Source: Acidimicrobiia bacterium
GTDB lineage: Bacteria; Actinomycetota; Acidimicrobiia; Spongiisociales; ZC4RG35
DNA: 64,000 nt
Direction of reading: 5' to 3'
Assembly: GCA_048595045.1 (NCBI GenBank)
Contig: JBMDXS010000075.1
Location: forward strand, 355-64,354
In this document: in pieces, positions 3,197 through 62,396 of the stretch
Layout of the letters: each line of letters begins with the position of its first letter
Position numbering within the stretch: the first letter of the stretch is position 1
Program-made: the position numbers and the translations under genes
Notes under the pieces: generated by a model
Seen by the model: only the letters and a program-made list of their open reading frames with translations
What the model was told of the DNA's origin: nothing
Database searches by the model: none

Positions 3197-4384
3197 ATGA
3201 GCGAGACCCCAAAGCAAACCCCTGTCCTCATCATCGGCGGTGGGCCGGCCGGCTCGTTGCTCGCCCTGCTACTGCATCAGCGAGAGGTCGAGAGCGTGAT
3301 CCTCGAGCTGAGAACCAGGGAGCATGTATTGGAACGGGTTCGAGCCGGGGTCATCGAGCACGGCAGCGCCGAGGTGCTCCGGGCCGCCGGCTTGGCCGGG
3401 CGCATGGACTCCGAGGGATTCGTCCACGAAGGAGTGCAGGTGGCTCACGGCGACGAGATGATCCGGATCGACTTCGAAGGTCTCACCGGCAAGCACGTCA
3501 CCATCTATGGGCAGACCGAGCTGCAGAGAGACCTATATGACGCACTCGACCTCGCCGGCATCCCGCTCCTGGATGAGGCGGACGGGGTGCGAGTCGAGGG
3601 GATCGAGGGTGATTCCCCGATGGTGACCTTCGAGCGCGGTGGCGCCACCCAGCAGATCCGATGTGACTTCGTAGCTGGTTGTGACGGCGCCCATGGCGTC
3701 AGCAACGGCTTCATCCCTCCCAGCCTGCAACACACCTTCGAGAGGACGTATCCGTTCTGTTGGGTAGGCCTCCTCTCGGAGACACCCCCGATCAACGATG
3801 AGCTGATCTATGCCAAGCACGAGCGTGGCTTCGCGCTGTGTTCGATGCGAAACGAGAGTCGCAGCCGGTACTACGTGCAAGGATCGGCCGATACGACCCT
3901 CGCAGAGTGGCCCGACGACCGCTTCTGGTCTGAGCTGGCTGCCCGGCTCCCGAAGACGTCGGTCGCCTCGCTGGTAACGGGGCCTTCGATCGAGAAGATC
4001 GTCACCCCGCTGCGAAGCTGGGTCTCCGAACCACTGCGTCATGGCAGGCTGTTACTCGCCGGGGACACCGCCCACGTCGTTCCCCCCACGGGGGCCAAGG
4101 GGCTGAATCTCGCCATCTCGGACGTCGTCTACCTCAGCGACGCATTGGCCTGGTTCTATCGGGCAGGCTCGACCACCGGTCTCGACGGTTATTCGGACCG
4201 GGCGCTGGCCCGAGTCTGGAAAGCGGTGCGATTCTCCTGGTGGATGACCAACATGCTCCACCTCTTCCCGGGGATGAGTGACGACTTCGAGCGTCGGCTC
4301 CAGACGACCGAGCTCGACTATCTGTTCGGATCCGACAACGCGCAGAGAGCGATGGCCGAGAACTATGTCGGTCTCCCCCTCTGA
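3197..4384 (+). CDS. pobA: 4-hydroxybenzoate 3-monooxygenase
   Basis: 395 aa, near full-length resemblance to Pseudomonas PobA as remembered: IIGGGPAG, YGQTELQRDL, AGCDGAHG, RSRYYVQ, LAGDTAHVVPPTGAKGLNLA, ENYVGLP. Confidence 0.95.
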   Translation: MSETPKQTPVLIIGGGPAGSLLALLLHQREVESVILELRTREHVLERVRAGVIEHGSAEVLRAAGLAGRMDSEGFVHEGVQVAHGDEMIRIDFEGLTGKHVTIYGQTELQRDLYDALDLAGIPLLDEADGVRVEGIEGDSPMVTFERGGATQQIRCDFVAGCDGAHGVSNGFIPPSLQHTFERTYPFCWVGLLSETPPINDELIYAKHERGFALCSMRNESRSRYYVQGSADTTLAEWPDDRFWSELAARLPKTSVASLVTGPSIEKIVTPLRSWVSEPLRHGRLLLAGDTAHVVPPTGAKGLNLAISDVVYLSDALAWFYRAGSTTGLDGYSDRALARVWKAVRFSWWMTNMLHLFPGMSDDFERRLQTTELDYLFGSDNAQRAMAENYVGLPL

Positions 4385-4408
4385 CCAGGCAAATGATGAG
4401 GACGGCAC

Positions 4409-4777
4409 ATGGGCACATATGAAGACGGTATGAACATCCGCCGCCAGGTCCTCGGCGATGAGCACGTCGACCGCGTCACCGCGGCTATGACCGATCTGGA
4501 CGGGGATTTTCAACGATGGATCACCGAGACGGCTTGGGGCGGGGTCTGGGCCCGACCCGGTCTGGACTTGAGGATCAGGAGCCTGATCAGCATCGCCATA
4601 CTCGGCGCCATGAACCATGGCGAGCTCGAGCTTCATCTGCGGGCGGCCCGGAATACCGGGGTCACACCAGAAGATGTGACAGAGGCCTTGCTCCACGTCG
4701 CGGTCTACGCCGGGATCCCGGCCGCCAACCGAGCATTCCGGGTCGCCAAGGAGATCTACGACGAGGAGTCGCCATGA
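4409..4777 (+). CDS. pcaC: 4-carboxymuconolactone decarboxylase
   Basis: 122-aa carboxymuconolactone-decarboxylase-family ORF (WGGVWARPGLD, HVAVYAGIPAA). ATGA overlap with pcaH. Confidence 0.88.
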   Translation: MGTYEDGMNIRRQVLGDEHVDRVTAAMTDLDGDFQRWITETAWGGVWARPGLDLRIRSLISIAILGAMNHGELELHLRAARNTGVTPEDVTEALLHVAVYAGIPAANRAFRVAKEIYDEESP

Positions 4778-5499
4778 GCGAGCCGCTGATAAGGCACTAC
4801 GGCCCCCGGGCCTATGCAGATCATCCCCCTTTCTCCTATCCCGACTATCGCTCGACGGTGAAGCGGAGCCCTACCCATGACCTGATCCAGATCGTGCAGA
4901 CCCTCTCCGAGACGACCGGCCCCGGACCCGCCTGGGCCGAGATCTCCGAAGAGGACAGCGACCTCACCACCAACACCGGCACCGGGAGCCCTGCCATCGG
5001 CGAGCGGATCATCGTCACCGGACGGGTCCTGGATGAGAACGGGCACGCCCTCCCCGAGACCGTCCTCGAGATCTGGCAGGCCAATGCCAGCGGTCGCTAC
5101 GCCCATTGGAGGGAGACAGAGTTCCCCGCACCCCTGGACCCCAACTTCGTCGGGGTCGGCCAGTGCCTGACCGATGCCGAGGGCGGCTACCGGTTCACCA
5201 CCATCAAGCCCGGCCCGTATCCCTGGGGAAACCATCCCAATGCCTGGCGCCCGTCCCATATCCACTTCTCGATCCTGGGGCCGTCGTTGGGGACGCGCCT
5301 CGTCACCCAGATGTACTTCCCGGGTGACCCCCTCATCCCACTGGATCCGATCTTCAACTCGGCGCCACCACACGCGAGGGATCGCATGATCGCCGGCTAC
5401 GACCACACCGTGACCGAGGAGAACTGGGCCCTCGGATACCGATGGGACATCGTGCTCCGCGGCGAGCAGAGAACCCCGATGCATGGAGGCGCCGATTGA
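4774..5499 (+). CDS. pcaH: protocatechuate 3,4-dioxygenase beta subunit
   Basis: Start taken at ATG 4774 (MSEPLIRHYGPRAY...), overlapping the pcaC stop. Intradiol dioxygenase motifs IWQANASGRYAHW and WRPSHIHFSI. Confidence 0.92.
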   Translation: MSEPLIRHYGPRAYADHPPFSYPDYRSTVKRSPTHDLIQIVQTLSETTGPGPAWAEISEEDSDLTTNTGTGSPAIGERIIVTGRVLDENGHALPETVLEIWQANASGRYAHWRETEFPAPLDPNFVGVGQCLTDAEGGYRFTTIKPGPYPWGNHPNAWRPSHIHFSILGPSLGTRLVTQMYFPGDPLIPLDPIFNSAPPHARDRMIAGYDHTVTEENWALGYRWDIVLRGEQRTPMHGGAD

Positions 5500-50947: not shown

Positions 50948-51982
50948 TCAGTCGAGGCCGTCTTCGACGCCGAGTCGTGCGCCCAGCTCCCGGAGTTGGC
51001 CGAGGAGGACGTCTCCCAACGGGATCCCGTCCCGAAGCCGGGCCGACGTCTCCGCGGCCGCCCTGTCGCCCGGAAGGTGGACCTGGCCATCTCCCCCCGA
51101 CGCCCGCAGTGTGGCGAGATGCCTTCCCATCTCAGACTTGAACTCGCCGAGGTCACGGAACAGGTCGGGCCGCATCACGAAGATGGCCTGGCCGGTATTG
51201 GCCGGCTGACCGGGCACGTGGCGATGGTCGATCACATCTTCACCGAATGCGGCTCCGTTGAGGACCCCGGCGAGGAGACCCAGGCCGAGATTGAGGCCCG
51301 ATCCCTTGTAGCCCCCGATGGGCATGAGGAACCCCTCGTCGGCCCGGGCCGGTTCGAGGATGGGTCGGCCGTCCCCGTCCACCACCCAGCCCTCTGGCAT
51401 CTGCTCCCCCGCCTGGGCCAGCACCTTGATCGTCCCGTGGGAGGTGACGGTGGTGGCGATGTCGAGCAGGAAGGGGTGGGCCTCGGTGGGTATGGCGATG
51501 GAGATCGGGTTGGTCCCGAGGAGCCGCTCGCGCCCACCCCAGGGAGGCATGACATTGGCACTGGCCACGGCGGTGTACATGGCGATCAGCCCTCGGTCGG
51601 CTGCCATCGCGGCATAGACCCCGGCCGCACCGGCATGGTTGGAGTGGACGGTGCCCACCCACGCCATCCCGGATTCGATGGCCTTGCTCACTGCTGTCTC
51701 GGTGGCGATCGTCATCACCACCTGCCCCAGGCCGTTGTCGCCGTCGACGAGAGCACTGACCGGCGTCTCCCGACGCAGCTCGATCTCCGGCCGGAGCTCG
51801 ATACCACCGGCGTCGATCCTCCCCGCATACTGGGGCAGTCGGATGATGCCGTGCCCGGTGCGGGCTCGGAGGTCTGCCTCGAGGAGGCGCCTCGCAGTGA
51901 CTTCTGCGTGCTCGGGGAGGGCGCCGAGCGAGACCAAGACCTCGCGGCAGAATGCGAGGAGACGGTCGAAGCCGAATCTCAC
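50948..51982 (-). CDS. Ldh_2-family (malate/L-lactate/sulfolactate/diketogulonate-type) dehydrogenase
   Basis: GTG 51982 overlaps the cupin stop (GTGA). Family motif TGHGIIRLPQY. Confidence 0.78.
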   Translation of the reverse strand: MRFGFDRLLAFCREVLVSLGALPEHAEVTARRLLEADLRARTGHGIIRLPQYAGRIDAGGIELRPEIELRRETPVSALVDGDNGLGQVVMTIATETAVSKAIESGMAWVGTVHSNHAGAAGVYAAMAADRGLIAMYTAVASANVMPPWGGRERLLGTNPISIAIPTEAHPFLLDIATTVTSHGTIKVLAQAGEQMPEGWVVDGDGRPILEPARADEGFLMPIGGYKGSGLNLGLGLLAGVLNGAAFGEDVIDHRHVPGQPANTGQAIFVMRPDLFRDLGEFKSEMGRHLATLRASGGDGQVHLPGDRAAAETSARLRDGIPLGDVLLGQLRELGARLGVEDGLD

Positions 51983-52362
51983 CGCGCGAACTGGTCCACC
52001 GTCTCGCCGGTGTCGGCGAAAGTCCGTGTCACCTCGGTGCTCCCGTACACCCAGAGGATCCGCATCCGCCCGGTGCCGGTGTTGATGAAGCGATGCCACT
52101 CCCCGGGCGCGATCTGCGTCGTGTCGTAGGGCCGGGCCGGCACCTGCTCCCCATTGAGCTCGGCCATCCCCTCGCCTTCGACGACGGTCACCTGCTCGAT
52201 GGTGTTGTGACTGTGGAGACGGATGCTGGTCCCGGGCGGAAAGGTGGTGATCCCCATGGTGAAGCCCTGTCCGTCGAGAGGGTTGGGGGTGAGGCGAACA
52301 CTCTCGATCCCGTCCCCTCGCGACACCGGGTCGGCCGCGTCGAACCTGATCAGCCCCGCCAT
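51979..52362 (-). CDS. small cupin-domain protein
   Basis: 127 aa with cupin motif 1 (HSHNTIE...G) and motif 2 (PGEWHRFIN). Confidence 0.8.
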   Translation of the reverse strand: MAGLIRFDAADPVSRGDGIESVRLTPNPLDGQGFTMGITTFPPGTSIRLHSHNTIEQVTVVEGEGMAELNGEQVPARPYDTTQIAPGEWHRFINTGTGRMRILWVYGSTEVTRTFADTGETVDQFAR

Positions 52363-52390: not shown

Positions 52391-53134
52391 TCATGCCATG
52401 AACCTACCGCCATTGACCGAAACCGTTTCCCCGGTCATGAACCCTGCCTCTGCGGAGGCAAGGAACAGGATCCACTCCGCCACCTCCTCCGGTGTCTGAT
52501 AGCGCCCGAGCGGTATGCCGGCGGCCGTGGCGGCCAACTGGTCCTGGTCACGCAGCCGCCGAATCCGCTCGGTGAGAACGGCCGATGGGGCCAGGGCATT
52601 GACGGTGATCCCCTCTCCAGCCAGCTCCGCGGCCAGGGCGCGGGTGAGCCCGTGCACCCCCGCCTTGGCAGCCACGTAGGGCGGAGCGGTCTGCCAGCCT
52701 GCGGTGAGGCCGGCCAGGGAGCCGAGGTTGACGATGCGGGCGGCGTCCGAGCGGCGGAGGAGGGGCAAACCGGCTCGGGTCATCAGGAACACCGTTGTCA
52801 GGTTGCTGTCCACGATGTCACGCCATTGATCCAGCGAGGTCTGTTCCAGCCCCAAGGCCTGAGGAAACCCGCCTGCGTTGTTGACCAGGACATCGATGCG
52901 TCCCCAGGCCCGCTCGACCACGTCGACCGCGGCCGCGACCTCTTTCTCGGAGGTGAGGTCGCAGTGGATGAACGTGGCAGATTCGATCTCGGCAGCGGCG
53001 GCCGGACCCGCTTCGTCGTCGATGTCCACGAGATACACGATGGCGCCTTCTCGGGCGAAGGCCCGGGCCGCGGCCTTCCCGATCCCGACCGCGGCGCCGG
53101 TCACCACCACGACTCGATCGGCGAAGCGGGTCAT
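52391..53134 (-). CDS. short-chain dehydrogenase/reductase
   Basis: TGAAVGIGKA, NNAG and the catalytic YVAAK. Confidence 0.9.
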   Translation of the reverse strand: MTRFADRVVVVTGAAVGIGKAAARAFAREGAIVYLVDIDDEAGPAAAAEIESATFIHCDLTSEKEVAAAVDVVERAWGRIDVLVNNAGGFPQALGLEQTSLDQWRDIVDSNLTTVFLMTRAGLPLLRRSDAARIVNLGSLAGLTAGWQTAPPYVAAKAGVHGLTRALAAELAGEGITVNALAPSAVLTERIRRLRDQDQLAATAAGIPLGRYQTPEEVAEWILFLASAEAGFMTGETVSVNGGRFMA

Positions 53135-54051
53135 GTCAGCGCCAGGCCAAGCAGTCCATCGGGGAGTTTGCGGTGGGCCAGCTCGATTGCCGGGCCGGAG
53201 ACAGCCACGAACTCGTCACGTTCCTCCTCGGTGAGGTCGACGAACATCGCACCGGCCCCCTCGAGCCGCACTCGCAGCGACCCCTCGAGATCTGCCGCGG
53301 CAACTCGCTGGGCATCCACGGCCCGGGTGGCGGCCTGAGTGACGAGGTCATGCAGATCGGGGTCGAAGCCCTCCAGGGTGGGCCGGTGACAGAACAGCCC
53401 CCTGGCCCCATAGAGATGACCGGTCATCGTGAAATGGCGGTGCACCTGGTCCACCCCGTAGGCAACCGTGTTGGCCAGCGGGTTCTCCTGGGCATCGACA
53501 TCGAGACGGGTGATCAGCTGGATCCCGGCACTCAGCTCCACCGCCACGGGGATGGCGCCCCAGGACCGGATCAGCTCTTCATGGATCTCGTTTGGCTGGA
53601 GACGCACCGTCATGCCTTCGCAGTCTGCGGGACGATGGATGGGGCGGAGCCGATTGGTCATGTGGCGGAACCCGTTGTCCCAGAAACCGAGCACGTCGAA
53701 GCCGGTCCGGCCTCTCACCGCCCCGGCCAGCGCCTCGCCGAGGGCGCCGTCTAGGGCATGGTGGGCGGTGGGCAGGTCGGGGAATAGAAACGGGGTCTCC
53801 AAGACGTCGAGCTCGGGGACACGGTGGCCGAGATAGCTCGACGAGAAATAGCAGAGGAACATGTGCCCGGCCTCGACAAGCTCGAAGAGATCGGTGTTGG
53901 GGCGCCCCTCCTCCATGATGTTCCAGGTGACGTCGACTGCCACGTCCCCGTCGGTCCCCTCTTCGACCAGCCGTTTGAAGGTCTTGAGACCCTCGCCATG
54001 GGCGCTCTGTTCTGGCCCATAACCGCCGATCCATAGCTTGCGGGGGCTCAT
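53131..54051 (-). CDS. DctP-family (TRAP-type solute-binding) protein lacking a signal peptide
   Basis: 306 aa with DctP-like WDNGFRHMTN, MTVRLQP and DAQENP. The ORF starts at the mature-domain equivalent (MSPRKLWIGGYGPEQSAHGEG). ATGA overlap with the SDR gene. Confidence 0.75.
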   Translation of the reverse strand: MSPRKLWIGGYGPEQSAHGEGLKTFKRLVEEGTDGDVAVDVTWNIMEEGRPNTDLFELVEAGHMFLCYFSSSYLGHRVPELDVLETPFLFPDLPTAHHALDGALGEALAGAVRGRTGFDVLGFWDNGFRHMTNRLRPIHRPADCEGMTVRLQPNEIHEELIRSWGAIPVAVELSAGIQLITRLDVDAQENPLANTVAYGVDQVHRHFTMTGHLYGARGLFCHRPTLEGFDPDLHDLVTQAATRAVDAQRVAAADLEGSLRVRLEGAGAMFVDLTEEERDEFVAVSGPAIELAHRKLPDGLLGLALT

Positions 54052-54140
54052 GCCTTCCTGCCCTCCGGTCGGCTGGAAGTCTCCATAGTCGATCGTATAT
54101 GATGCAGGATCGTCCTGTCGAACGGGGTTAGGAGAGCAAA

Positions 54141-55373
54141 ATGGCCGAGGAGCCTTGGAAGACCGACCAGTGGTTCTCCAGCCCGTGGAACTATCTGCCC
54201 GAGGTGACCGGGGACTTTCGATTCCCCGAATCGGTCCAGGTCCACGATGTCACTCTCCGTGACGGGGAGCAACAGGCGGGCGTCGAGTTCACCTCCGACG
54301 ACAAGCTGAGGATCGCTACCGCCCTGGCCGAGGCCGGCATCCATCGCATCGAGGCCGGCCTGCCCGCGGTGTCACCGTCCGACGCAGACGCCATCAAGAG
54401 GATGGTGGCCGAAGGGCTCCCCACCGAGATCTACGCCTTCAGCCGGTGCATGGTTCCCGACGTGGAGCTCGCCCTCGATTGCGGGGTCAAGGGTGTGGTC
54501 ATGGAGGTGCCTGCCAGCCACCACCTGATCGAGAAGGCGTATCGATGGCCGATCGAGAAGGCGATCGAGGCATCGGTCGAAGCGACCAAATACGCCCATG
54601 ACAACGGCCTGGAGGTGACCTTCTTCCCGATCGACGCCACCCGGGCCACCATGACCGAGCTGCTCGACGACCTCGAGCAAGTGGCCACAGAGGGCCATGT
54701 CGACAAGATCGCTCTCGTCGACACCTTCGGAGTCACCTCGCCTCACGCCATCCGGTACTACACGCAGCGGGTGCGGGAGCGCATGGCCGTGCCTCTGGAG
54801 ACCCATTTCCACATGGACTTCGGGATGGGGGTGGCCAACACCGCCCTGGCCGTGGCCGAGGGCGCCTCGGTGATACACACCACGGTGAGCGGCATCGGCG
54901 AGCGGGCCGGCAACGCACCCACCGAGGAGACGGTCCTCGCCCTCCTCACCATGTATGGGATCGACACAGGCATCGACACCACCAAGTTCACCGAGATCGC
55001 CCGTCTGGTGGCAGAACTCTCCGGTGTCACCCAGCCGGCCAACCGCCCCGTGACCGGCGAGATGCTCTACAACGTCGAGTCCGGGATCATCGCCACTTGG
55101 GTCAAGAACGTCGGCGACGAGTTGCTCGAGCCCTTCCCCTACCGTCCCGAGCTAGTGGGCCAGGCTTCTCCCGAGATCGTCCTCGGGAAGGGCTCGGGGC
55201 TGGACTCGGTGGCGATCTGGCTGGGTCGCCATGGGATCCACGACGCCGAGACCAAGGAGATCGAGGCGATCCTCGCCGAGGTCAAGGGCCGCTCCCTGGC
55301 CACGAAGGGCCTGCTCGACGACGAGGAGTTCCTCGAGATGGTCCGGGAGGTGATCCCGGATAAGGTCGGCTAG
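54141..55373 (+). CDS. HMGL-like / pyruvate carboxyltransferase-domain enzyme (homocitrate/citramalate/isopropylmalate synthase family)
   Basis: 410 aa with HDVTLRDGEQ, HFHMDFGMGVAN and GIGERAGNA. Confidence 0.82.
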   Translation: MAEEPWKTDQWFSSPWNYLPEVTGDFRFPESVQVHDVTLRDGEQQAGVEFTSDDKLRIATALAEAGIHRIEAGLPAVSPSDADAIKRMVAEGLPTEIYAFSRCMVPDVELALDCGVKGVVMEVPASHHLIEKAYRWPIEKAIEASVEATKYAHDNGLEVTFFPIDATRATMTELLDDLEQVATEGHVDKIALVDTFGVTSPHAIRYYTQRVRERMAVPLETHFHMDFGMGVANTALAVAEGASVIHTTVSGIGERAGNAPTEETVLALLTMYGIDTGIDTTKFTEIARLVAELSGVTQPANRPVTGEMLYNVESGIIATWVKNVGDELLEPFPYRPELVGQASPEIVLGKGSGLDSVAIWLGRHGIHDAETKEIEAILAEVKGRSLATKGLLDDEEFLEMVREVIPDKVG

Positions 55374-55406
55374 CAACGAGAAGACCCCAGGGAGGTAGAA
55401 GCAGGG

Positions 55407-56645
55407 ATGAGAGAAGCATTCTTCGGGCTGAGCACCGACTGGAAAGAGGGGATCAACTGGGCCAACGTCAGGGATTGGCGTCTGAAGCGGGCCCATGCCG
55501 CCATGGAGCGACATGGTCTCGGGGCCCTGCTCCTCTTCTACGACGAGAACATGCGCTATGTGTCTTCGACGCTCACCCCGGGGTGGAACCGTCTCAAGCC
55601 AGGTCTTCGTTACGTGGTCCTCACGGCCGGCAAGCCCCCAATCGTCTACGAACAGGGCGACATCGGCTTCCACCTCGAGGTGCACAACCCCTGGATCCCC
55701 AAGGAGAACATCCGCTACTCGTACGCCTGGATCAAGGGTGCGGTGGGCCCTGCGGCGGAGCAACAGGTCACCAAGTTCGTCGATTCCCTGATGAACGACC
55801 TGGAGCAGGCCGGCGTGAAGGACCAACCCCTGGGAGTCGATTTCATCGACATCAACCTCATCAAGCAGTTCGAGCAGCGTGGCCTGACATGGACCGACGG
55901 CATGACCCCGATGATGGAGGCCCGCGCCATCAAGAGCCCCGACGAGATCAAGGCGTTCTCCATCGTCGGTGCCATCTGTGACTACGTCCATTACGAGATC
56001 ACGAACTTCATCAAGCCGGGCCTCACCGAGAACGAGGTGGCCGCATTCGGGTTCGAAAAGCTCTACTCCCTGCCCGGCATGGAGGACGTCGAGGACGTGA
56101 TCGTGTCCTCGGGGCCCAACGCCTGGCCCAACTGGCGAAACTTCTCCGACCGCATGATCCGGCCCGGTGAGCTGGTGATCGTCGATCTGGCCGCCCTCAC
56201 CTGGAACGGGTTCAAGTCCTGCGTCTATCGCACCTATTGCGTAGGTGGGAAGCCCACCGACGAGCATCAGAAGACGTACGACCTGGCCCACAAGTGGCTC
56301 TGGGACTCGATCGAGGCGACCGGGCCCGGGGTGACGACGGCGGACGTGGCCTCGAAATGGCCGTCGGCCAAGGAGGTGTGGGGCTATGAGGAGGAGGATC
56401 AAGCCGCAGCCAACTTCTGGGGCCACGGGCTCGGTCTCGCCCAGTACGACCCGCCTGTGATCTCGCGGATCTGGTCTCTCGACCACCCGGTCGAGATCCA
56501 ACCGGGGATGACCTTCGCCTTGGAGACCCAGCACGGCAAGCTCCACGACCACGGAGTACGTCTCGAGGAGATGCTCTACGTGACCGAGACCGGCATCGAG
56601 ATGGTCTCCAGCTACGCCTCCCACGAGATCATCTCGGTCACCTGA
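55407..56645 (+). CDS. M24-family hydrolase paralogue with a non-canonical metal site
   Basis: 412 aa, alignable over its full length with the 45075 gene. Motifs VDLAA, SCVYRT (Cys where Asp is expected), GHGLG, ALET and RLEE. Confidence 0.8.
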   Translation: MREAFFGLSTDWKEGINWANVRDWRLKRAHAAMERHGLGALLLFYDENMRYVSSTLTPGWNRLKPGLRYVVLTAGKPPIVYEQGDIGFHLEVHNPWIPKENIRYSYAWIKGAVGPAAEQQVTKFVDSLMNDLEQAGVKDQPLGVDFIDINLIKQFEQRGLTWTDGMTPMMEARAIKSPDEIKAFSIVGAICDYVHYEITNFIKPGLTENEVAAFGFEKLYSLPGMEDVEDVIVSSGPNAWPNWRNFSDRMIRPGELVIVDLAALTWNGFKSCVYRTYCVGGKPTDEHQKTYDLAHKWLWDSIEATGPGVTTADVASKWPSAKEVWGYEEEDQAAANFWGHGLGLAQYDPPVISRIWSLDHPVEIQPGMTFALETQHGKLHDHGVRLEEMLYVTETGIEMVSSYASHEIISVT

Positions 56646-56652
56646 CCGGGTC

Positions 56653-58032
56653 TTGCTCCACGACCTCGACAGCGAAGCTGCCCTCGACCCGGCTCGGGTC
56701 GGGGCCAAGGCAGCCTGGCTGGGTCGAGCCCGACGCGCCGGGCTCCCGGTCCTGCCCGGGCTGGTGGTCGACTCGGCGGCGTCGCTCGAACACATGTCCC
56801 TCGGGGCGAAGATGCTGGCCGATCGTGGCTCCGGTGGGGCACGTCTCGCCATGACAGCCGCTCCACCACCGCTGGCCGACGAGTTGGTGGCCCGTGCCGG
56901 GCGGCTGGGTGCAGTGCTCGTCGCCCGGTCATCGACCAGGCTCGAGGCATCGGGCGAGTGGTCTGGCGCCTTCACCTCCTATCTCGAAGTCTCACCGGCC
57001 GAGCTCCCCAGGGCGGTGACCGGGTGCTGGGCTTCGGCGTTCTCGGTGGCGGCCCTGGAACGACAGTCGGCCACCGGGGTCGCCCCTGGGTCCGTCGCGA
57101 TGGCGGTGCTGGTGCAGCCGGCCATCGAACCGGAAGCCGGAGGCACGGCGCGTTTCGAGACCGACGGCACCATGGTGGTGACCGGGGTGAAGGGGTCTCC
57201 CGCACCCTTGCTCCAGGGGTGGGCCAGTGGCCACACCGGGCCGGAGCTGGTCGAGGTGATCGGTGTAGAGGCAATCGAGCGGGTGGAGTCGATCCTCCGC
57301 GAGGCACACGAGGCCACGGGTGCCAATCGTTGTGAATGGGCCCTGCTCGACGGCGTGGTCTGGGTCCTCCAGCTCGGCCAGGCGGTACCAGAGGATCGAT
57401 CCCGGAGAATCGACCCCGGCCCGATGGATCCTCGACTCACCCGGATCGCCCGGATCGTGGTCGGATACGGGGAAGAGGCCTGGGAGCGATACCTCGTCGA
57501 GAGGGGGATGGGCCACTCGATCGACCAGGTCCTTCTGGGACCGGACCCTGGCCCGGCACTGGACGCGATCGACCGGGCGCCACCGATCCGGCGCCACGCC
57601 GGCGAGCTGCACGAGCCGGCCGGGCAACCGGACATCGAGCACCAGGGCCGGCGCCGCGGGGTTGGGCGTTGGGAGCCCTTCGTCGCATCCATCGTCCTCG
57701 GCAACGGCCACCGGGTCCAGGGAACACCCGCTTCGGCAGGCATAGCAGCCGGGGTGCTGACCCGTCCCGAGGACTTCCGGGTCCCCTTGCCGTCGCGTCG
57801 CGTCCTGGCCGCCGGGCAGCCGGTTCCCAACCTGGCCCCCCTCCTCTGGGATGCCGCGGCCATCGTCACCGAGACGGGGAGCCCCGCCGCCCACCTGTTC
57901 GAGTCCGCCCGGGCTCTGCGGGTCCCGGCGGTCTGTGGGGTCGCCATCCCGCCGGGTGATTTGATCGTGGCCGTTGACGGGCAAGATGGGGTGGTGGCGA
58001 CCATCTCTCTATACGGGGAAGACCATGTCTGA
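56653..58032 (+). CDS. PEP-utilising-enzyme-like protein: PPDK_N ATP-grasp plus swivel His domain, no TIM-barrel domain
   Basis: 459 aa with GAKAAWLGRARRAGLPV, VARSSTRLEASGEWSGAFTS, and C-terminal GTPASAGIAAG...TETGSPAAHLFESARALRVPAV. TTG start. Confidence 0.75.
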   Translation: MLHDLDSEAALDPARVGAKAAWLGRARRAGLPVLPGLVVDSAASLEHMSLGAKMLADRGSGGARLAMTAAPPPLADELVARAGRLGAVLVARSSTRLEASGEWSGAFTSYLEVSPAELPRAVTGCWASAFSVAALERQSATGVAPGSVAMAVLVQPAIEPEAGGTARFETDGTMVVTGVKGSPAPLLQGWASGHTGPELVEVIGVEAIERVESILREAHEATGANRCEWALLDGVVWVLQLGQAVPEDRSRRIDPGPMDPRLTRIARIVVGYGEEAWERYLVERGMGHSIDQVLLGPDPGPALDAIDRAPPIRRHAGELHEPAGQPDIEHQGRRRGVGRWEPFVASIVLGNGHRVQGTPASAGIAAGVLTRPEDFRVPLPSRRVLAAGQPVPNLAPLLWDAAAIVTETGSPAAHLFESARALRVPAVCGVAIPPGDLIVAVDGQDGVVATISLYGEDHV

Positions 58033-58900
58033 GATGATCGGGGTGATCGGCCTCGGGGTCATGGGCTCGGCGATGGCACGCAACCTGCTCGCCGCCGGGC
58101 ATGAAGTGGTCGGCTACGACGTCGAGCCATCCCGCCTCTCCACGTTTGCCGATTTCGGGGGAGAACCGGCCCACTCGGCCGCCGAGGTCTCTGGCCTCGC
58201 CGGGGTCGTCGTCTTCTCGCTGCCGACCACGGGCGCGCTGGGGGCTGTGGCCGGCGAAGTGGCGGAGGTGGGACCAGAAGGGCTGTTGTGCCTGGAGACG
58301 GGGACGTTCCCACTCGCCGACAAGCTCGCGGCGCGTGATGTCCTCGCCGGGTCCGGGATCGAGCTGATGGACACCCCGCTCTCCGGGACCGGCCTCCAGG
58401 CGGCAGACGCCACCCTCGTCGTCTTCGCCTCGGGAAGCGAGGACGGGTTCGACAGGGCTCGGCCCGTCTTCGATGCGATCGGGCGATCGACTCACTACCT
58501 GGGCGAGTTCGGCAACGGCTCGAAGATGAAGTATGTGGCCAACCTCCTGGTCGCCGTTCATGGTCTCGCCGCCGCCGAGGCCCATGCCCTGGGAATCGCC
58601 GCCGGGCTCGACCCCCAACGCGTCCAGGAGGTGATGGAGGACGGGGTCGGCTCCTCCAAGATCTTCGAGATACGCGGACCGATGATGGTGGCCGACGACT
58701 ACCCGGCTGCGGCGCGTCTCGACATCCTGCTCAAGGACTCGCGAATCATCCGAGAGTTTGCACGGTCGGTGGGCGCACCCACTCCCCTACTCGATGCAAC
58801 CGTTCCCAGCTACGAGGCGGCCAGCGAGGCGGGGCTGGGCGACCTCGACGCCGCTGCCCTCTGCAGGTACCTGGAGGAGCTGGGCGGGCTGGAACGGTGA
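58025..58900 (+). CDS. 3-hydroxyisobutyrate/6-phosphogluconate-dehydrogenase-like NAD(P) oxidoreductase
   Basis: ATG 58025 (MSEMIGVIGLGVMGSAMARNL) overlaps the upstream gene by 8 nt. Confidence 0.85.
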   Translation: MSEMIGVIGLGVMGSAMARNLLAAGHEVVGYDVEPSRLSTFADFGGEPAHSAAEVSGLAGVVVFSLPTTGALGAVAGEVAEVGPEGLLCLETGTFPLADKLAARDVLAGSGIELMDTPLSGTGLQAADATLVVFASGSEDGFDRARPVFDAIGRSTHYLGEFGNGSKMKYVANLLVAVHGLAAAEAHALGIAAGLDPQRVQEVMEDGVGSSKIFEIRGPMMVADDYPAAARLDILLKDSRIIREFARSVGAPTPLLDATVPSYEAASEAGLGDLDAAALCRYLEELGGLER

Positions 58901-61197
58901 TCGGACAGCCTCTCCGCCGGGTGGAGGACCCGAGGCTCGTCACCGGACAGGGTCGGTACGTCGATGACATCGCGCCCCCCGGGGTGCTCCACGCCGTCTT
59001 CGTGAGAAGTGTCGAGGCCCACGCCACGATCGGCTCGATCACCCTGGACGAGACTGGGATCGGGGAGCTCTTTACCGCTGCCGACCTCGGCCTGGAGCGC
59101 CCGATGCCCAACCAATACCCATCACCTCTGATCACCCAGTCGATCCAGTCCCCACCCCTCGCCATCGACGAGGTCTGTTATGTGGGGCAGCCCGTGGCAG
59201 TCGTCGTGGCAGAGACGGCGGCGGGAGCCGTGGACTGCGCCGACCTGGTGGGCGTGGACTACGAGACATTGCCGGTGATCATCGACCATCGTCGAGCCCT
59301 GGACCCAGAAGCTGCCCCGGCCCACCTCGACTCTGAGACGAACCTGGTCGGAACCCTCACCGCATCCTTTGGGGATGTCGACGCTGTCTTCACCGCTGCC
59401 CCACACCGGATCACCGTCGAGGTCGACCAGCACCGCGGCGCCCTGGCCTCCATGGAGGGCAGGGCGGTCCTGGCCCGCTGGGACGATGCCGAGCGCCGGC
59501 TCACGCTGTGGAGCTCCAGCCAGGCGCCACATGCCATCCGGGCTCAGCTGGCCGGCTATCTCGGTCTCTCCCCCGATGAGCTGCGAGTGATCGCGCCCGA
59601 CGTCGGCGGTGGCTTCGGGCCGAAAGCGGCCATCTACGCCGAGGAGTACGTCGTAGCCGCGCTGGCCCTGAAGTTGAGACGCCCGGTGAAGTGGACCGAG
59701 CGTCGCCGGGAGCATTTCGTAGCAACCAACCAGCAGCGTGGCCAGAGCGGAAACGTCGAGGCGGCCGTCGACCGGGAGGGGCTGATCCTCGGGCTTCGGG
59801 TCAGGCTGGTGCACGACTGCGGGGCCTATGTCCCCTACGGGATCGTGGTCCCGATGACCACGCTGCGTCTCCTCTCCGGGCCCTACGCCATCCCCGCTCT
59901 CGACGCCGCCATCGACGTGGTCTTCACCAACGCAACACCCACCGGGGCGATCAGGGGTGCCGGCCGCCCCAATGCCACCTTCGCCATCGAGCGAGTGGTC
60001 GACGCCATCGCCCGCGAGCTGGGGCTGGACCGGGCCGAGGTGAGGAGACGCAACTTCGTCCGACCCGATCAGCTGCCCTATGTCGTGGACATCGCCGCCT
60101 CCGACGGCCGCAGGGTGACCTACGACAGTGGCGATTACGGGGCTGCGCTCGATCGGGCGTTGCAGGTGGCCGACCTCGACGGGTTCGAGGAACGAAGGTC
60201 ACGCTCGGCCGACTCGGGCCGTCTTCGCGGCTTCGGCATCGCCTCCTATGTCGAGGACACCGGGCTCGGGCCGTACGAAGGCGTGCGTATCGAGGTGCTC
60301 ACCAATGGCGAGGTCCTGATCGAGACCGGGGCGAGCTCGCAAGGACAGGGTCACGCCACGGTGCTCGCCCAGATCTGCGCTTCCCATCTCGGCGTCAGCC
60401 CGGATCGGGTCAGGGTTCGGTCCGGCGACACGGCCGCCTACGGGCACGGCATCGCGACGGTGGCCAGCCGTAGCGGCCAGACCACCGCATCGGCCGCCCA
60501 TGTAGCCGCGGGCGATCTCGCCGAAACCGTCAAGCGCCTCGCCGCCGACCGTCTCGAGGCTTCGAGCCAGGACATCGTCCTGGCCGACGGAGTGGCCATG
60601 GTCGTGGGCCAACCCGGGACCGAGATCCCTCTCGGCGACCTGGCCGCGGGTCTTCAGCCCAAGCTGGGCGCCGTCCTGCCGGAGGGCCAGCAACGACCAG
60701 GGCTCTCGGTGGAGCGCGTCCTCCCCTTCGACGGCCTGGCATATACCTTCGGTACCCATGTGGCCGAGGTGGAGGTCGACCCGGAGACCGGCCATGTGGT
60801 CGTCGTCGGCTACGTCGTCGTCCACGACTGCGGGACGCTGCTCAACCCGATGATCGTCGATGGCCAGATCGATGGCGGCGTCGCCCACGGGTTGGGCAAT
60901 GCCCTATCGGAAGAGGTTCGGTTCAGCGAAGACGGCCAGCCGCTCACCACATCGTTCATGGACTACCGACTGATCACGGCCGCCGACATGCCTCCGCTGA
61001 CCAAGATCCACACCGAGACTCCGTCGCCGACCAACCCGCTGGGCGCAAAGGGCGCCGGCGAGGGTGGCACGATCCCCACCGCCGCTGCAGTCGCCTCCGC
61101 AGTGGAGCATGCGCTGGTGGGGATGGGGATCACCGTCGACCACTATCCGATCGGCTCGGAGTGGGTGCGCCGGGCGATCTCCCAAGCCTCCAAGTGA
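58897..61197 (+). CDS. xanthine dehydrogenase/CoxL-family molybdopterin-binding large subunit
   Basis: 766 aa with an a/b-hammerhead N-terminus (GQPLRRVEDPRLVTGQGRYVDD), GGGFGPK and AIRGAGRP. GTGA overlap with the upstream gene. Confidence 0.88.
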   Translation: MIGQPLRRVEDPRLVTGQGRYVDDIAPPGVLHAVFVRSVEAHATIGSITLDETGIGELFTAADLGLERPMPNQYPSPLITQSIQSPPLAIDEVCYVGQPVAVVVAETAAGAVDCADLVGVDYETLPVIIDHRRALDPEAAPAHLDSETNLVGTLTASFGDVDAVFTAAPHRITVEVDQHRGALASMEGRAVLARWDDAERRLTLWSSSQAPHAIRAQLAGYLGLSPDELRVIAPDVGGGFGPKAAIYAEEYVVAALALKLRRPVKWTERRREHFVATNQQRGQSGNVEAAVDREGLILGLRVRLVHDCGAYVPYGIVVPMTTLRLLSGPYAIPALDAAIDVVFTNATPTGAIRGAGRPNATFAIERVVDAIARELGLDRAEVRRRNFVRPDQLPYVVDIAASDGRRVTYDSGDYGAALDRALQVADLDGFEERRSRSADSGRLRGFGIASYVEDTGLGPYEGVRIEVLTNGEVLIETGASSQGQGHATVLAQICASHLGVSPDRVRVRSGDTAAYGHGIATVASRSGQTTASAAHVAAGDLAETVKRLAADRLEASSQDIVLADGVAMVVGQPGTEIPLGDLAAGLQPKLGAVLPEGQQRPGLSVERVLPFDGLAYTFGTHVAEVEVDPETGHVVVVGYVVVHDCGTLLNPMIVDGQIDGGVAHGLGNALSEEVRFSEDGQPLTTSFMDYRLITAADMPPLTKIHTETPSPTNPLGAKGAGEGGTIPTAAAVASAVEHALVGMGITVDHYPIGSEWVRRAISQASK

Positions 61198-62396
61198 GCC
61201 GGCACCCCAAGTCGACCGAGCCATTTCGGATCGGCTCACTGACCGGCTCCGTCTACGTGCCGAACCTCCTGTTCTCCATCGGGCAGGGGGCGGCCATACC
61301 GGTCATCGCCCTGGTCGCCCTCGATCTGGGTGCCTCCCCCGCAGCGGCCGGGTTCATCGTTGCCCTCCGCGGTATCGGGACCCTCGTGTTCGACATCCCG
61401 GCGGGTTTGATGGTGGCACGCATCGGGGAGCGCTGGTCTATGTTGTTGGCCACGGGCACCCTCGCCCTGGTCGCGGTCGGGATCGCCTCCCAGCCCAGCA
61501 TCGCCGTGTATTCGGTCCTGGTCTTTCTGCTCGGCTGCGCCTGGTCGGTTTGGGCGCTGGCTCGTCTCACCTACGCCACCGAGGCCACCCCGCTCCGCCA
61601 GCGGGGGCGGGTGATGTCGATCATGGGCGGCACCATGAGGGCCGGGCAATTCATCGGCCCGTTGATCGGCGGCCTCGTCATCATCCCACTCGGCCTGGCC
61701 GGGCCATTCTTCGCTCAAGCCCTGTTCGCCGTCGCCGCCGCGGTGACCCTCTTCTTCACGGTCGAGCCCACCGTCTCCGACTCCGGCGTAGAAACCGAGC
61801 CGACGCCCTCGCTGCGGACACTGCTCAGTGACAGTGGCCAGGTCCTCCGGACCGCCGGTTTCGTCGCGGTGGCCATCCAGGTGCTGCGGACCGCCCGTCA
61901 GGCCATCGTCCCGCTGTGGGGTGATCATCTCGGCCTCGGCGCCAGCCAAATCTCCCTGATCTTCGGAGCCTCGGCGGGGATCGAGATGGCCATCTTCTAC
62001 CCGATTGGGATGTTGATGGACCGGAAGGGACGCAAATGGGCTGCGGTTCCCTGTCTCATCTTGCTGTCGGTGGGGATGGCGCTGATTCCCCTCACGTCCA
62101 CCTTCGCCGGGCTGCTCGTCGTCGGGCTCTTCCTCGGTCTGGCCAACGGCCTCGGCGCCGGGATCAACATGGTCCTCGGATCCGACTTCTCCCCACGGCT
62201 CGGGCGGAGCCAGTTCTTTGGGATCTGGCGTCTCATCAGCGACCTCGGAACCGCAGGGGGGCCGCTGCTGGTGGCCGCCGTCACCTCGATCGCCTCACTA
62301 GGGGCGGCGGCGCTGGCCGTTGCGGGCTTCGGCCTGGTCGGCGCCACCGTCATGTGGCGGGCGGTGCCCGAGACCCTTCAAGCCGACCTCGAATGA
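61194..62396 (+). CDS. MFS transporter
   Basis: GTG 61194 overlaps the upstream stop (GTGA). About 12 TM segments and an MFS loop motif GMLMDRKGRK. Confidence 0.82.
   Translation: MSRHPKSTEPFRIGSLTGSVYVPNLLFSIGQGAAIPVIALVALDLGASPAAAGFIVALRGIGTLVFDIPAGLMVARIGERWSMLLATGTLALVAVGIASQPSIAVYSVLVFLLGCAWSVWALARLTYATEATPLRQRGRVMSIMGGTMRAGQFIGPLIGGLVIIPLGLAGPFFAQALFAVAAAVTLFFTVEPTVSDSGVETEPTPSLRTLLSDSGQVLRTAGFVAVAIQVLRTARQAIVPLWGDHLGLGASQISLIFGASAGIEMAIFYPIGMLMDRKGRKWAAVPCLILLSVGMALIPLTSTFAGLLVVGLFLGLANGLGAGINMVLGSDFSPRLGRSQFFGIWRLISDLGTAGGPLLVAAVTSIASLGAAALAVAGFGLVGATVMWRAVPETLQADLE

Follow-up and report, generated by a model that had tools for sequence, protein, structure and literature searches.

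A DctP-family protein without an export signal, encoded in a conserved enzyme operon of Acidimicrobiia

Introduction

The solute-binding proteins of TRAP (tripartite ATP-independent periplasmic) transporters are textbook extracytoplasmic receptors, and the only accepted role that we know of for them is to hand substrates to the membrane subunits DctQ and DctM (DctQM) and to set the direction of transport. Then, could a protein of this family work inside the cell? Here, we describe a candidate, termed DctPL (leaderless DctP), which is encoded within an enzyme operon on a 64-kb stretch of DNA (the window) from an Acidimicrobiia bacterium (assembly GCA_048595045.1, contig JBMDXS010000075.1, positions 355 to 64,354), in a genome where no DctQM could be found. 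A full-text search, with most subscription journals outside its reach, retrieved no publication about DctP or TRAP binding proteins that are leaderless or stay in the cytoplasm, and neither 'leaderless' nor 'cytoplasmic SBP' (solute-binding protein) occurs in the accessible text of a review of the TTT family (PMC5812351).

The locus

The DctPL gene (53131..54051, minus strand) starts with ATG and encodes 306 aa of the family PF03480. It is followed on the same strand by a short-chain dehydrogenase/reductase (SDR) of 247 aa (52391..53134; PF13561, 8e-62; PF00106, 5e-52), a 127-aa single-domain cupin that carries the metal motif His-His-Glu-His (51979..52362; PF07883, E 2.4e-16) and an NAD(P)-dependent dehydrogenase of the Ldh_2 family of 344 aa (50948..51982; PF02615, E 1e-101). 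The stop codon of DctPL overlaps the start codon of the SDR as ATGA, 28 nt separate the SDR from the cupin, and the GTG start of Ldh_2 at 51982 overlaps the cupin stop as GTGA. As read from its junction, DctPL is translationally coupled to the SDR. This arrangement, from the ATGA overlap to the cupin and the Ldh_2 gene, had been described in an earlier annotation made from the letters alone (the sequence-only reading), and it is borne out here; the operon also proves to be conserved. On the other side of DctPL lies a divergent intergenic region of 89 bp (54052..54140), which presumably holds both promoters. The ribosome-binding site GGAGG in this region was correctly recognized in the sequence-only reading, but its distance to the ATG, given there as 9 nt, is 10 nt.

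Family, predicted fold and ligand clamp

DctPL matches the Pfam profile DctP (PF03480) with an E-value of 2.2e-49 and a score of 168.8 bits (cut-off 23.4), and the three motifs that had suggested the family assignment (WDNGFRHMTN, MTVRLQP and DAQENP) are all present in its translation. Residues 11–289 align to positions 4–279 of the 286 positions of the profile; therefore, the start of DctPL lies about seven residues ahead of the mature domain, approximately where mature TRAP binding proteins start, as the sequence-only reading had proposed. Among the NCBIfam models, NF037995 is exceeded (121.2 bits, cut-off 50), which is agreement at the family level only, while TIGR00787 gives 134.5 bits, under its cut-off of 175. 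An AlphaFold2 model built from a 94-row alignment has a mean pLDDT of 95.9 and a pTM of 0.91, and it predicts a complete two-lobed binding-protein fold, with spanning strands and a long helix at the C-terminus, in agreement with the profile. Foldseek aligned about 303 of the 306 residues of the model to solved TRAP binding proteins with TM-scores of 0.89–0.93; 4pdh matched with E 6e-27 and TM 0.89, with similar values for 4pdd, 7bbr, 4pf8 and 4pak, and the score to apo IseP (8t9t) was 0.93. By sequence, the best solved chains were 4p9k/4pak (5e-32), followed by 4pdd and 4pdh.

In IseP, the acid group of the ligand is clamped by Arg156, Arg177 and Asn217, according to the report on this protein (PMC11668362). 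The residues R129, R150 and N190 of DctPL are spaced by 21 and 40 residues, identical to the spacing given there, so the Arg pair and the Asn that make up the clamp of the DctP family are in place. R150 is invariant across the 94 rows, 20 exported proteins among them. In 35 clade members (the clade is described below), G10, Y11, P87, G127, R129, R150, G165, N190 and Q248 are invariant. In addition, a signature of G10, Y11, Y68, N194, G215 and A252 sets the leaderless proteins apart: each residue occurs in at least 94% of their 34 representatives, as opposed to at most 25% of 20 exported proteins. When the clamp is used to set the offset, at 27 residues, Y11, Y68, N194 and G215 would correspond to Pro38, Ser95, Leu221 and Ser242 of IseP, which belong to its pocket and hinge (PMC11668362), a mapping at the level of sequence that assumes a constant offset and no indels. 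Judging from these residues, the clade retains a working acid clamp together with a pocket signature of its own.

Absence of an export signal

The exported P subunit of a TRAP system carries a Sec or Tat signal or a lipobox, and none of these was found in DctPL from start codons and hydropathy. The reading frame 5' of DctPL stays open for 66 further codons and enters the divergent gene that begins at 54141, yet it is hydrophilic and contains no ATG, GTG or TTG. There is also no hydrophobic N-terminus and no Tat motif in DctPL itself, and in the AlphaFold2 model the first beta-strand begins at residue 4, so that no spare N-terminal peptide would be left. Consequently, the view of the sequence-only reading that the upstream frame is hydrophilic and that no signal peptide or lipobox has been missed holds on inspection of all 66 codons.

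The same pattern is seen in related loci (L), which were collected by a pattern scan with a 10-row alignment over one genome per GTDB species. The best 80 of 580 relatives are spread over Acidimicrobiia, Nitrospinota, Tectomicrobia, Methylomirabilota, Alphaproteobacteria, Betaproteobacteria and further groups. The upstream frame could be followed in 78 of these 80 loci, two being skipped as the match began late. An in-frame stop occurs within 15 codons upstream of the equivalent of Met1 in 28 of the 78, and within 20 codons in 30; one locus lies at a contig edge. Among the 47 loci with longer open upstream frames, a hydrophobic stretch (12 residues with a Kyte-Doolittle mean of at least 2.0 in the last 60 upstream codons) is present in only two, L068 and L076. 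On the 12-residue measure, exported relatives reach 2.0–3.7, while the first 40–45 residues of leaderless clade members score lower. Leaderless proteins also contain 2.5–3.4 cysteines each versus 1.25 in exported relatives, which is a weak indicator.

No TRAP membrane partner in the genome

The host genome (3.08 Mb in 277 contigs, 96.67% complete, 0.65% contaminated) was searched with profiles for the cognate membrane subunits of a TRAP system, and neither DctM (PF06808) nor DctQ (PF04290) gave a match anywhere in it, while DctPL is its sole DctP-family gene. The same genome searches were positive in 8, 5 and 6 of 14 control genomes. Within the window, tblastn with five DctM proteins found no DctM, and there is no DctQ in it either. 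The lack of both genes, first noted for the window only, therefore extends to the whole of the assembled genome.

We also compared 41 genomes (G) of the genus and order, the host genome (G000) included. An orthologue of DctPL is found in 20 of them (E ≤1e-40) and DctM in 15. DctM was undetected in 14 of the 20 orthologue-bearing genomes, eight of which are at least 90% complete and at most 5% contaminated; in the remaining six it is present on a different contig. If the unpublished genome G019 is left aside, 19 genomes have an orthologue, 13 of them without DctM. Within the genus the distribution of DctM is patchy (8 of 24 other genomes). The Acidimicrobiia orthologues thus show independence from DctM at the level of the genus. 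Leaderless relatives are encoded both by G045, a 4.9-Mb genome in which DctM was not matched, and by four genomes that have 16–26 DctM matches.

A leaderless clade under purifying selection

When 1.84 billion representatives were searched exhaustively and without a profile, 7710 of them matched at E ≤1e-3. Among the 150 matches listed, 88 are full-length, of which 42 have a hydrophobic N-terminus, 40 have none and six are ambiguous. In a quick maximum likelihood tree (LG+G4, 83 rows), a branch that receives an SH-aLRT support of 100% has the leaderless proteins on one side. This side holds 40 of the 83 rows, 39 called leaderless and one signal-bearing, and the other holds 41 signal-bearing rows and two called leaderless, the starts of which are probably mis-called. 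The phylogenetic placement suggested for DctPL in the sequence-only reading thereby puts it in a well-supported leaderless clade. Tat-like motifs are carried by the proteins P0202, which had been scored leaderless, and P0206; together with P0162 they mark a small subclade containing exported forms, with Tat-like or Sec-like signals, which is nearest to the alphaproteobacterial leaderless forms. Hence export has been gained or lost within the clade. A betaproteobacterial locus, L077, has two genes of the DctP clade (17-379 and 3907-4821) and is the only one of the 80 with a second copy.

Nei-Gojobori estimates of dN/dS between DctPL and 14 orthologues at 64–89% identity are 0.12–0.23; against four orthologues at 45–50% identity they are 0.26–0.50, with dS near saturation. 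Almost all of the 120 best homologue clusters (68–100% identity; Acidimicrobiia where named) are 303–306 aa long. DctPL is a functional gene under purifying selection. In G013, a genome of the same genus, the orthologue (C23:308434-309346) is found in two overlapping pieces (residues 1-124 and 117-304), owing to a frameshift or an assembly error.

Operon and neighbourhood

Of the 29 loci whose DctPL is at least 60% identical, 21 preserve the order DctPL-SDR-cupin-Ldh_2. The other eight comprise five that end at a contig edge, two (L019 and L030) that retain the SDR only, and L024, which has EamA instead. Over all 80 related loci, the SDR adjoins DctPL in 26. At 47–52% identity (L038, L040, L046 and L057), DctPL, cupin and Ldh_2 remain adjacent, with a 4-nt overlap in L046. 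The cupin lies directly 3' of DctPL in L038, L040 and L046, and in L057 (10001-11320) both form one open reading frame (ORF) of 439 aa, where the intervening stop is missing while the ribosome-binding site and ATG of the cupin are retained. Among the homologues, four matches are longer than 536 aa, namely an 803-aa protein with DctP only, a TctC+DctP fusion and two fusions of DctP with a methyl-accepting chemotaxis protein (MCP), and none of the four contains an SDR, cupin or Ldh_2. Co-folding of DctPL with the cupin gave a score of 0.00, obtained without controls, a value with no bearing on whether the two bind.

None of the SDR, cupin, Ldh_2, M24 and HMGL-like proteins reaches an NCBIfam naming cut-off. 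Across 23 orthologues, the metal-motif residues of the cupin (H50, H52, E56 and H90) do not vary; the nearest solved chains match the cupin only at E ~1e-6, and its best named matches, the dimethylsulfoniopropionate (DMSP) lyase DddK and ectoine synthase, are weak (E ~1e-5). For Ldh_2, the best NCBIfam match is L-sulfolactate dehydrogenase (239.7 bits, under the cut-off of 500), the model of 3-dehydro-L-gulonate dehydrogenase gives 118.5 bits (cut-off 316), and the best PDB matches are 1v9n and 2x06.

Also found in the island around the operon are genes for a sugar-type ABC system, for dehydrogenases of the 2-hydroxyacid, GFO/IDH/MocA and FMN types, and for an Amidohydro_2 protein, an HpcH aldolase and a GntR/FCD regulator. 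Six genes make up the divergent operon (54141-62396, plus strand), namely the HMGL-like gene, which starts at 54141, M24, a half-size phosphoenolpyruvate-utilising dikinase, HIBADH, the large subunit of a molybdenum hydroxylase and an MFS gene (61161-62396). The top model for its M24 protein is the DMSP lyase DddP, far under the cut-off. No RNA run containing the sequence was listed; four soil sequencing runs, probably of DNA, contain only 12–15% of the words sampled.

For the more distant members of the clade, Pfam domains were assigned to 136 neighbouring ORFs from 18 loci and to the ORFs of L046, L057, L064 and L066 (321 ORFs called). Their neighbours include FAA hydrolase, aldehyde dehydrogenase, Amidohydro_1/2/3, MR_MLE, RraA-like proteins, CoA transferases, DUF3500, MFS and EamA. 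An EamA gene stands directly downstream of the leaderless DctP in L034 (4460-6345, with a 4-nt overlap) and L024 (9825-11857). DctM, sought by tblastn with the same five proteins, was found in 13 of the 80 loci (L062, L064, L065, L066, L068, L071-L076, L079 and L080), the records of which are all titled Alphaproteobacteria or proteobacterium. For example, L064 (5434-10921) and L066 (4680-10921) show the order dctQ-dctM-SDR-acyl-CoA dehydrogenase-(toxin-antitoxin pair)-leaderless dctP, with nitrile hydratase divergent. No second DctP gene occurs within 10 kb in any of the 13, and the proteins do begin without a leader; in several, an in-frame stop is found 1–5 codons upstream.

Candidate ligand and role

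According to PMC11668362, pantoate, erythronate and 2-keto-3-deoxygluconate (KDG) are ligands of solved TRAP binding proteins, and 7bbr, a near structural relative of the DctPL model, is titled 'sugar acid binding protein'. The gene mix of the island and the ligands of the nearest solved relatives suggest a sugar acid or a small hydroxy or keto acid as the ligand. A sulfonate may also be bound, and the weak matches to DddK, ectoine synthase and L-sulfolactate dehydrogenase may indicate an organosulfur substrate as the alternative to a sugar acid.

DctPL is most likely cytoplasmic, which follows in a straightforward way from the missing export signal, the genome without DctQM and the enzyme operon; the prediction of the sequence-only reading that it would stay in the cytoplasm is supported to this extent. 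With moderate confidence, we regard it as an intracellular acid-binding protein, which would capture the acid of the pathway and either hold it or pass it on to the enzymes translated together with it. With no export of DctPL and no DctQM in its genome, protein and ligand would come together within the cell. The acid, taken up or made in the cytoplasm by the products of the gene island, would be captured as DctPL closes on it through the Arg-Arg-Asn clamp, the most likely ligand being a small carboxylate with a hydroxy or keto group, perhaps a sugar acid. DctPL would then hold the acid or hand it to the SDR, cupin and Ldh_2.

Several points weigh against this role. The location, ligand and partners of DctPL have all been deduced from sequence. 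The ligand class is drawn from distant relatives (24–27% identity), the bound ligands of which were partly co-purified, and the weak, below-cut-off names point elsewhere (DddP-like M24, DddK-like cupin, sulfolactate-dehydrogenase-like Ldh_2). The host assembly is in 277 contigs and 3.3% short of complete. Neighbours vary between subclades, with no universal partner enzyme, and the single ORF of L057 is one case in one metagenome-assembled genome, where a sequencing error or the loss of the stop codon could be the cause. The small subclade near the alphaproteobacterial leaderless forms includes proteins with Tat or Sec signals. Finally, the leaderless P is the sole P gene beside dctQ-dctM in 13 of the 80 loci, so independence from the transporter is not clade-wide. 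This linkage does not apply to the genome of DctPL itself, which is without QM. Therefore, the suggestion in the sequence-only reading that the protein may have been recruited for something other than uptake would apply to this genome and needs qualifying for the clade as a whole.

A broader reading, to which we give tentative credit only, is that leaderless DctP proteins are widespread intracellular metabolite receptors, with the dctQM-linked forms of Alphaproteobacteria acting on the inner side of the TRAP carrier. They would then serve binding-protein-dependent metabolism (or acceptance on the trans side, or export) rather than uptake, and DctPL would be dedicated to the SDR-cupin-Ldh_2 pathway.

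It is rather unlikely that the binding protein has turned into a fourth enzyme of the operon, acting on the acid for example as an isomerase, dehydratase or lactonase. There is precedent in MqnA/MqnD and cyclohexadienyl dehydratase, which are cytoplasmic or periplasmic enzymes with binding-protein folds; the signature residues Y11, Y68, N194 and G215 map to pocket and hinge positions, and clade proteins sit among enzymes in every subclade looked at. However, DctPL has kept its two lobes and the whole of the binding clamp, no motif for catalysis was recognized in it, a shared ligand type would be just as likely to give rise to a pocket signature, and the sequence-level mapping assumes a constant offset.

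We consider it improbable that DctPL works at the cytoplasmic face of a carrier (MFS, EamA or, for the alphaproteobacterial forms, DctQM), from which it would accept the imported acid or to which it would deliver one. In L018 and L026, the gene directly upstream of DctPL is a homologue of the MFS gene at 61161-62396 of the window, EamA directly follows the relative in L024 and overlaps it in L034, and dctQ-dctM share a gene string with the sole P gene in the 13 loci. However, catabolic clusters of any kind commonly include transporter genes, the nearest ones in the window are at least 7 kb from DctPL, and we know of no transporter that docks a binding protein on its inner face.

DctPL could also be a cytoplasmic sensor that reports the level of the acid to a regulator or signalling protein, though this seems distinctly improbable. 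DctP domains can serve as intracellular sensor modules, as soluble fusions with MCP indicate: of the fusions P0244 (888 aa), P0211 (594 aa), P0273 (881 aa) and P0274 (885 aa), no membrane segment is predicted for P0211 and P0244, which resemble soluble chemoreceptors whose sensor domain is DctP; in addition, GntR/FCD regulators are frequent neighbours. However, these fusions come from another lineage and are without the GGY motif of the clade, and DctPL stands alone, with no MCP or other signalling domain. GntR/FCD regulators have a ligand-binding domain of their own, and DctPL is coupled to an enzyme, while the regulator is 6 kb off on the opposite strand.

Export along an unconventional route, or as the passenger of a partner that carries a signal, in the service of a non-TRAP importer is very unlikely. 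The Tat-signal forms of the sister subclade (P0202 and P0206) and the ABC and MFS importers encoded in the window would fit it, but the fold beginning at residue 4 spares no N-terminal peptide, 28 of 78 relatives have an in-frame stop shortly upstream, the SDR, cupin and Ldh_2 belong to cytoplasmic enzyme families, and the cysteine content, weak as this indicator is, exceeds that of exported relatives. That DctPL is the decaying, functionless relic of a lost TRAP system is hardly credible and was rejected, since, despite the patchy DctM of the genus and the gene in two pieces in G013, dN/dS is 0.12–0.23, length and pocket residues are constant, translational coupling is conserved and the clade spans several phyla.

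Comparison with known systems

The E. coli operon yiaK-yiaL-yiaMNO offers a similar gene mix, with the Ldh_2 dehydrogenase YiaK acting on a keto sugar acid, the small beta-barrel YiaL and the DctP-family YiaO, so that an Ldh_2 protein, a small beta-barrel and a DctP-family protein share one operon as they do here. Unlike DctPL, YiaO is exported and works with YiaMN, and YiaL is not known as a Cupin_2 protein. The Venus-flytrap fold of periplasmic binding proteins has been reused away from transport in the effector domains of LysR, in MqnA/MqnD and in cyclohexadienyl dehydratase; none of these is known to be a DctP protein, whereas DctPL keeps the transport-type family and clamp. With the classical TRAP binding proteins of the DctP family (4pdh, 4pdd, 4pak/4p9k, 4nq8, DctPAm 7bbr, IseP 8t9t/8te9 and SiaP) it shares family, predicted fold and clamp spacing, but it differs from them in having no signal peptide or lipobox, in a genome without DctQM and in a gene placed inside an enzyme operon, as well as in its identity of 19–27% to the solved chains, its separate clade and its signature G10/Y11/Y68/N194/G215. 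Among binding proteins encoded away from membrane partner genes, the Bug proteins of Bordetella and AdpC of R. palustris are 'orphans' of the TTT family with no cognate membrane genes nearby; however, these are TctC-family proteins described as periplasmic and exported (PMC5812351).

Significance

If a selected cytoplasmic clade is confirmed, the DctP fold would have a second, intracellular job, and many proteins annotated as 'TRAP transporter substrate-binding protein' would be wrongly labelled as far as transport is predicted from the name. Such proteins would represent a new type of accessory protein for catabolic pathways and could provide ready-made cytoplasmic ligand binders for biosensor work. 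Members of the clade keep the ligand clamp even in genomes without any DctQM, and the operon of Acidimicrobiia is a compact four-gene system in which an intracellular role of DctP could be tested.

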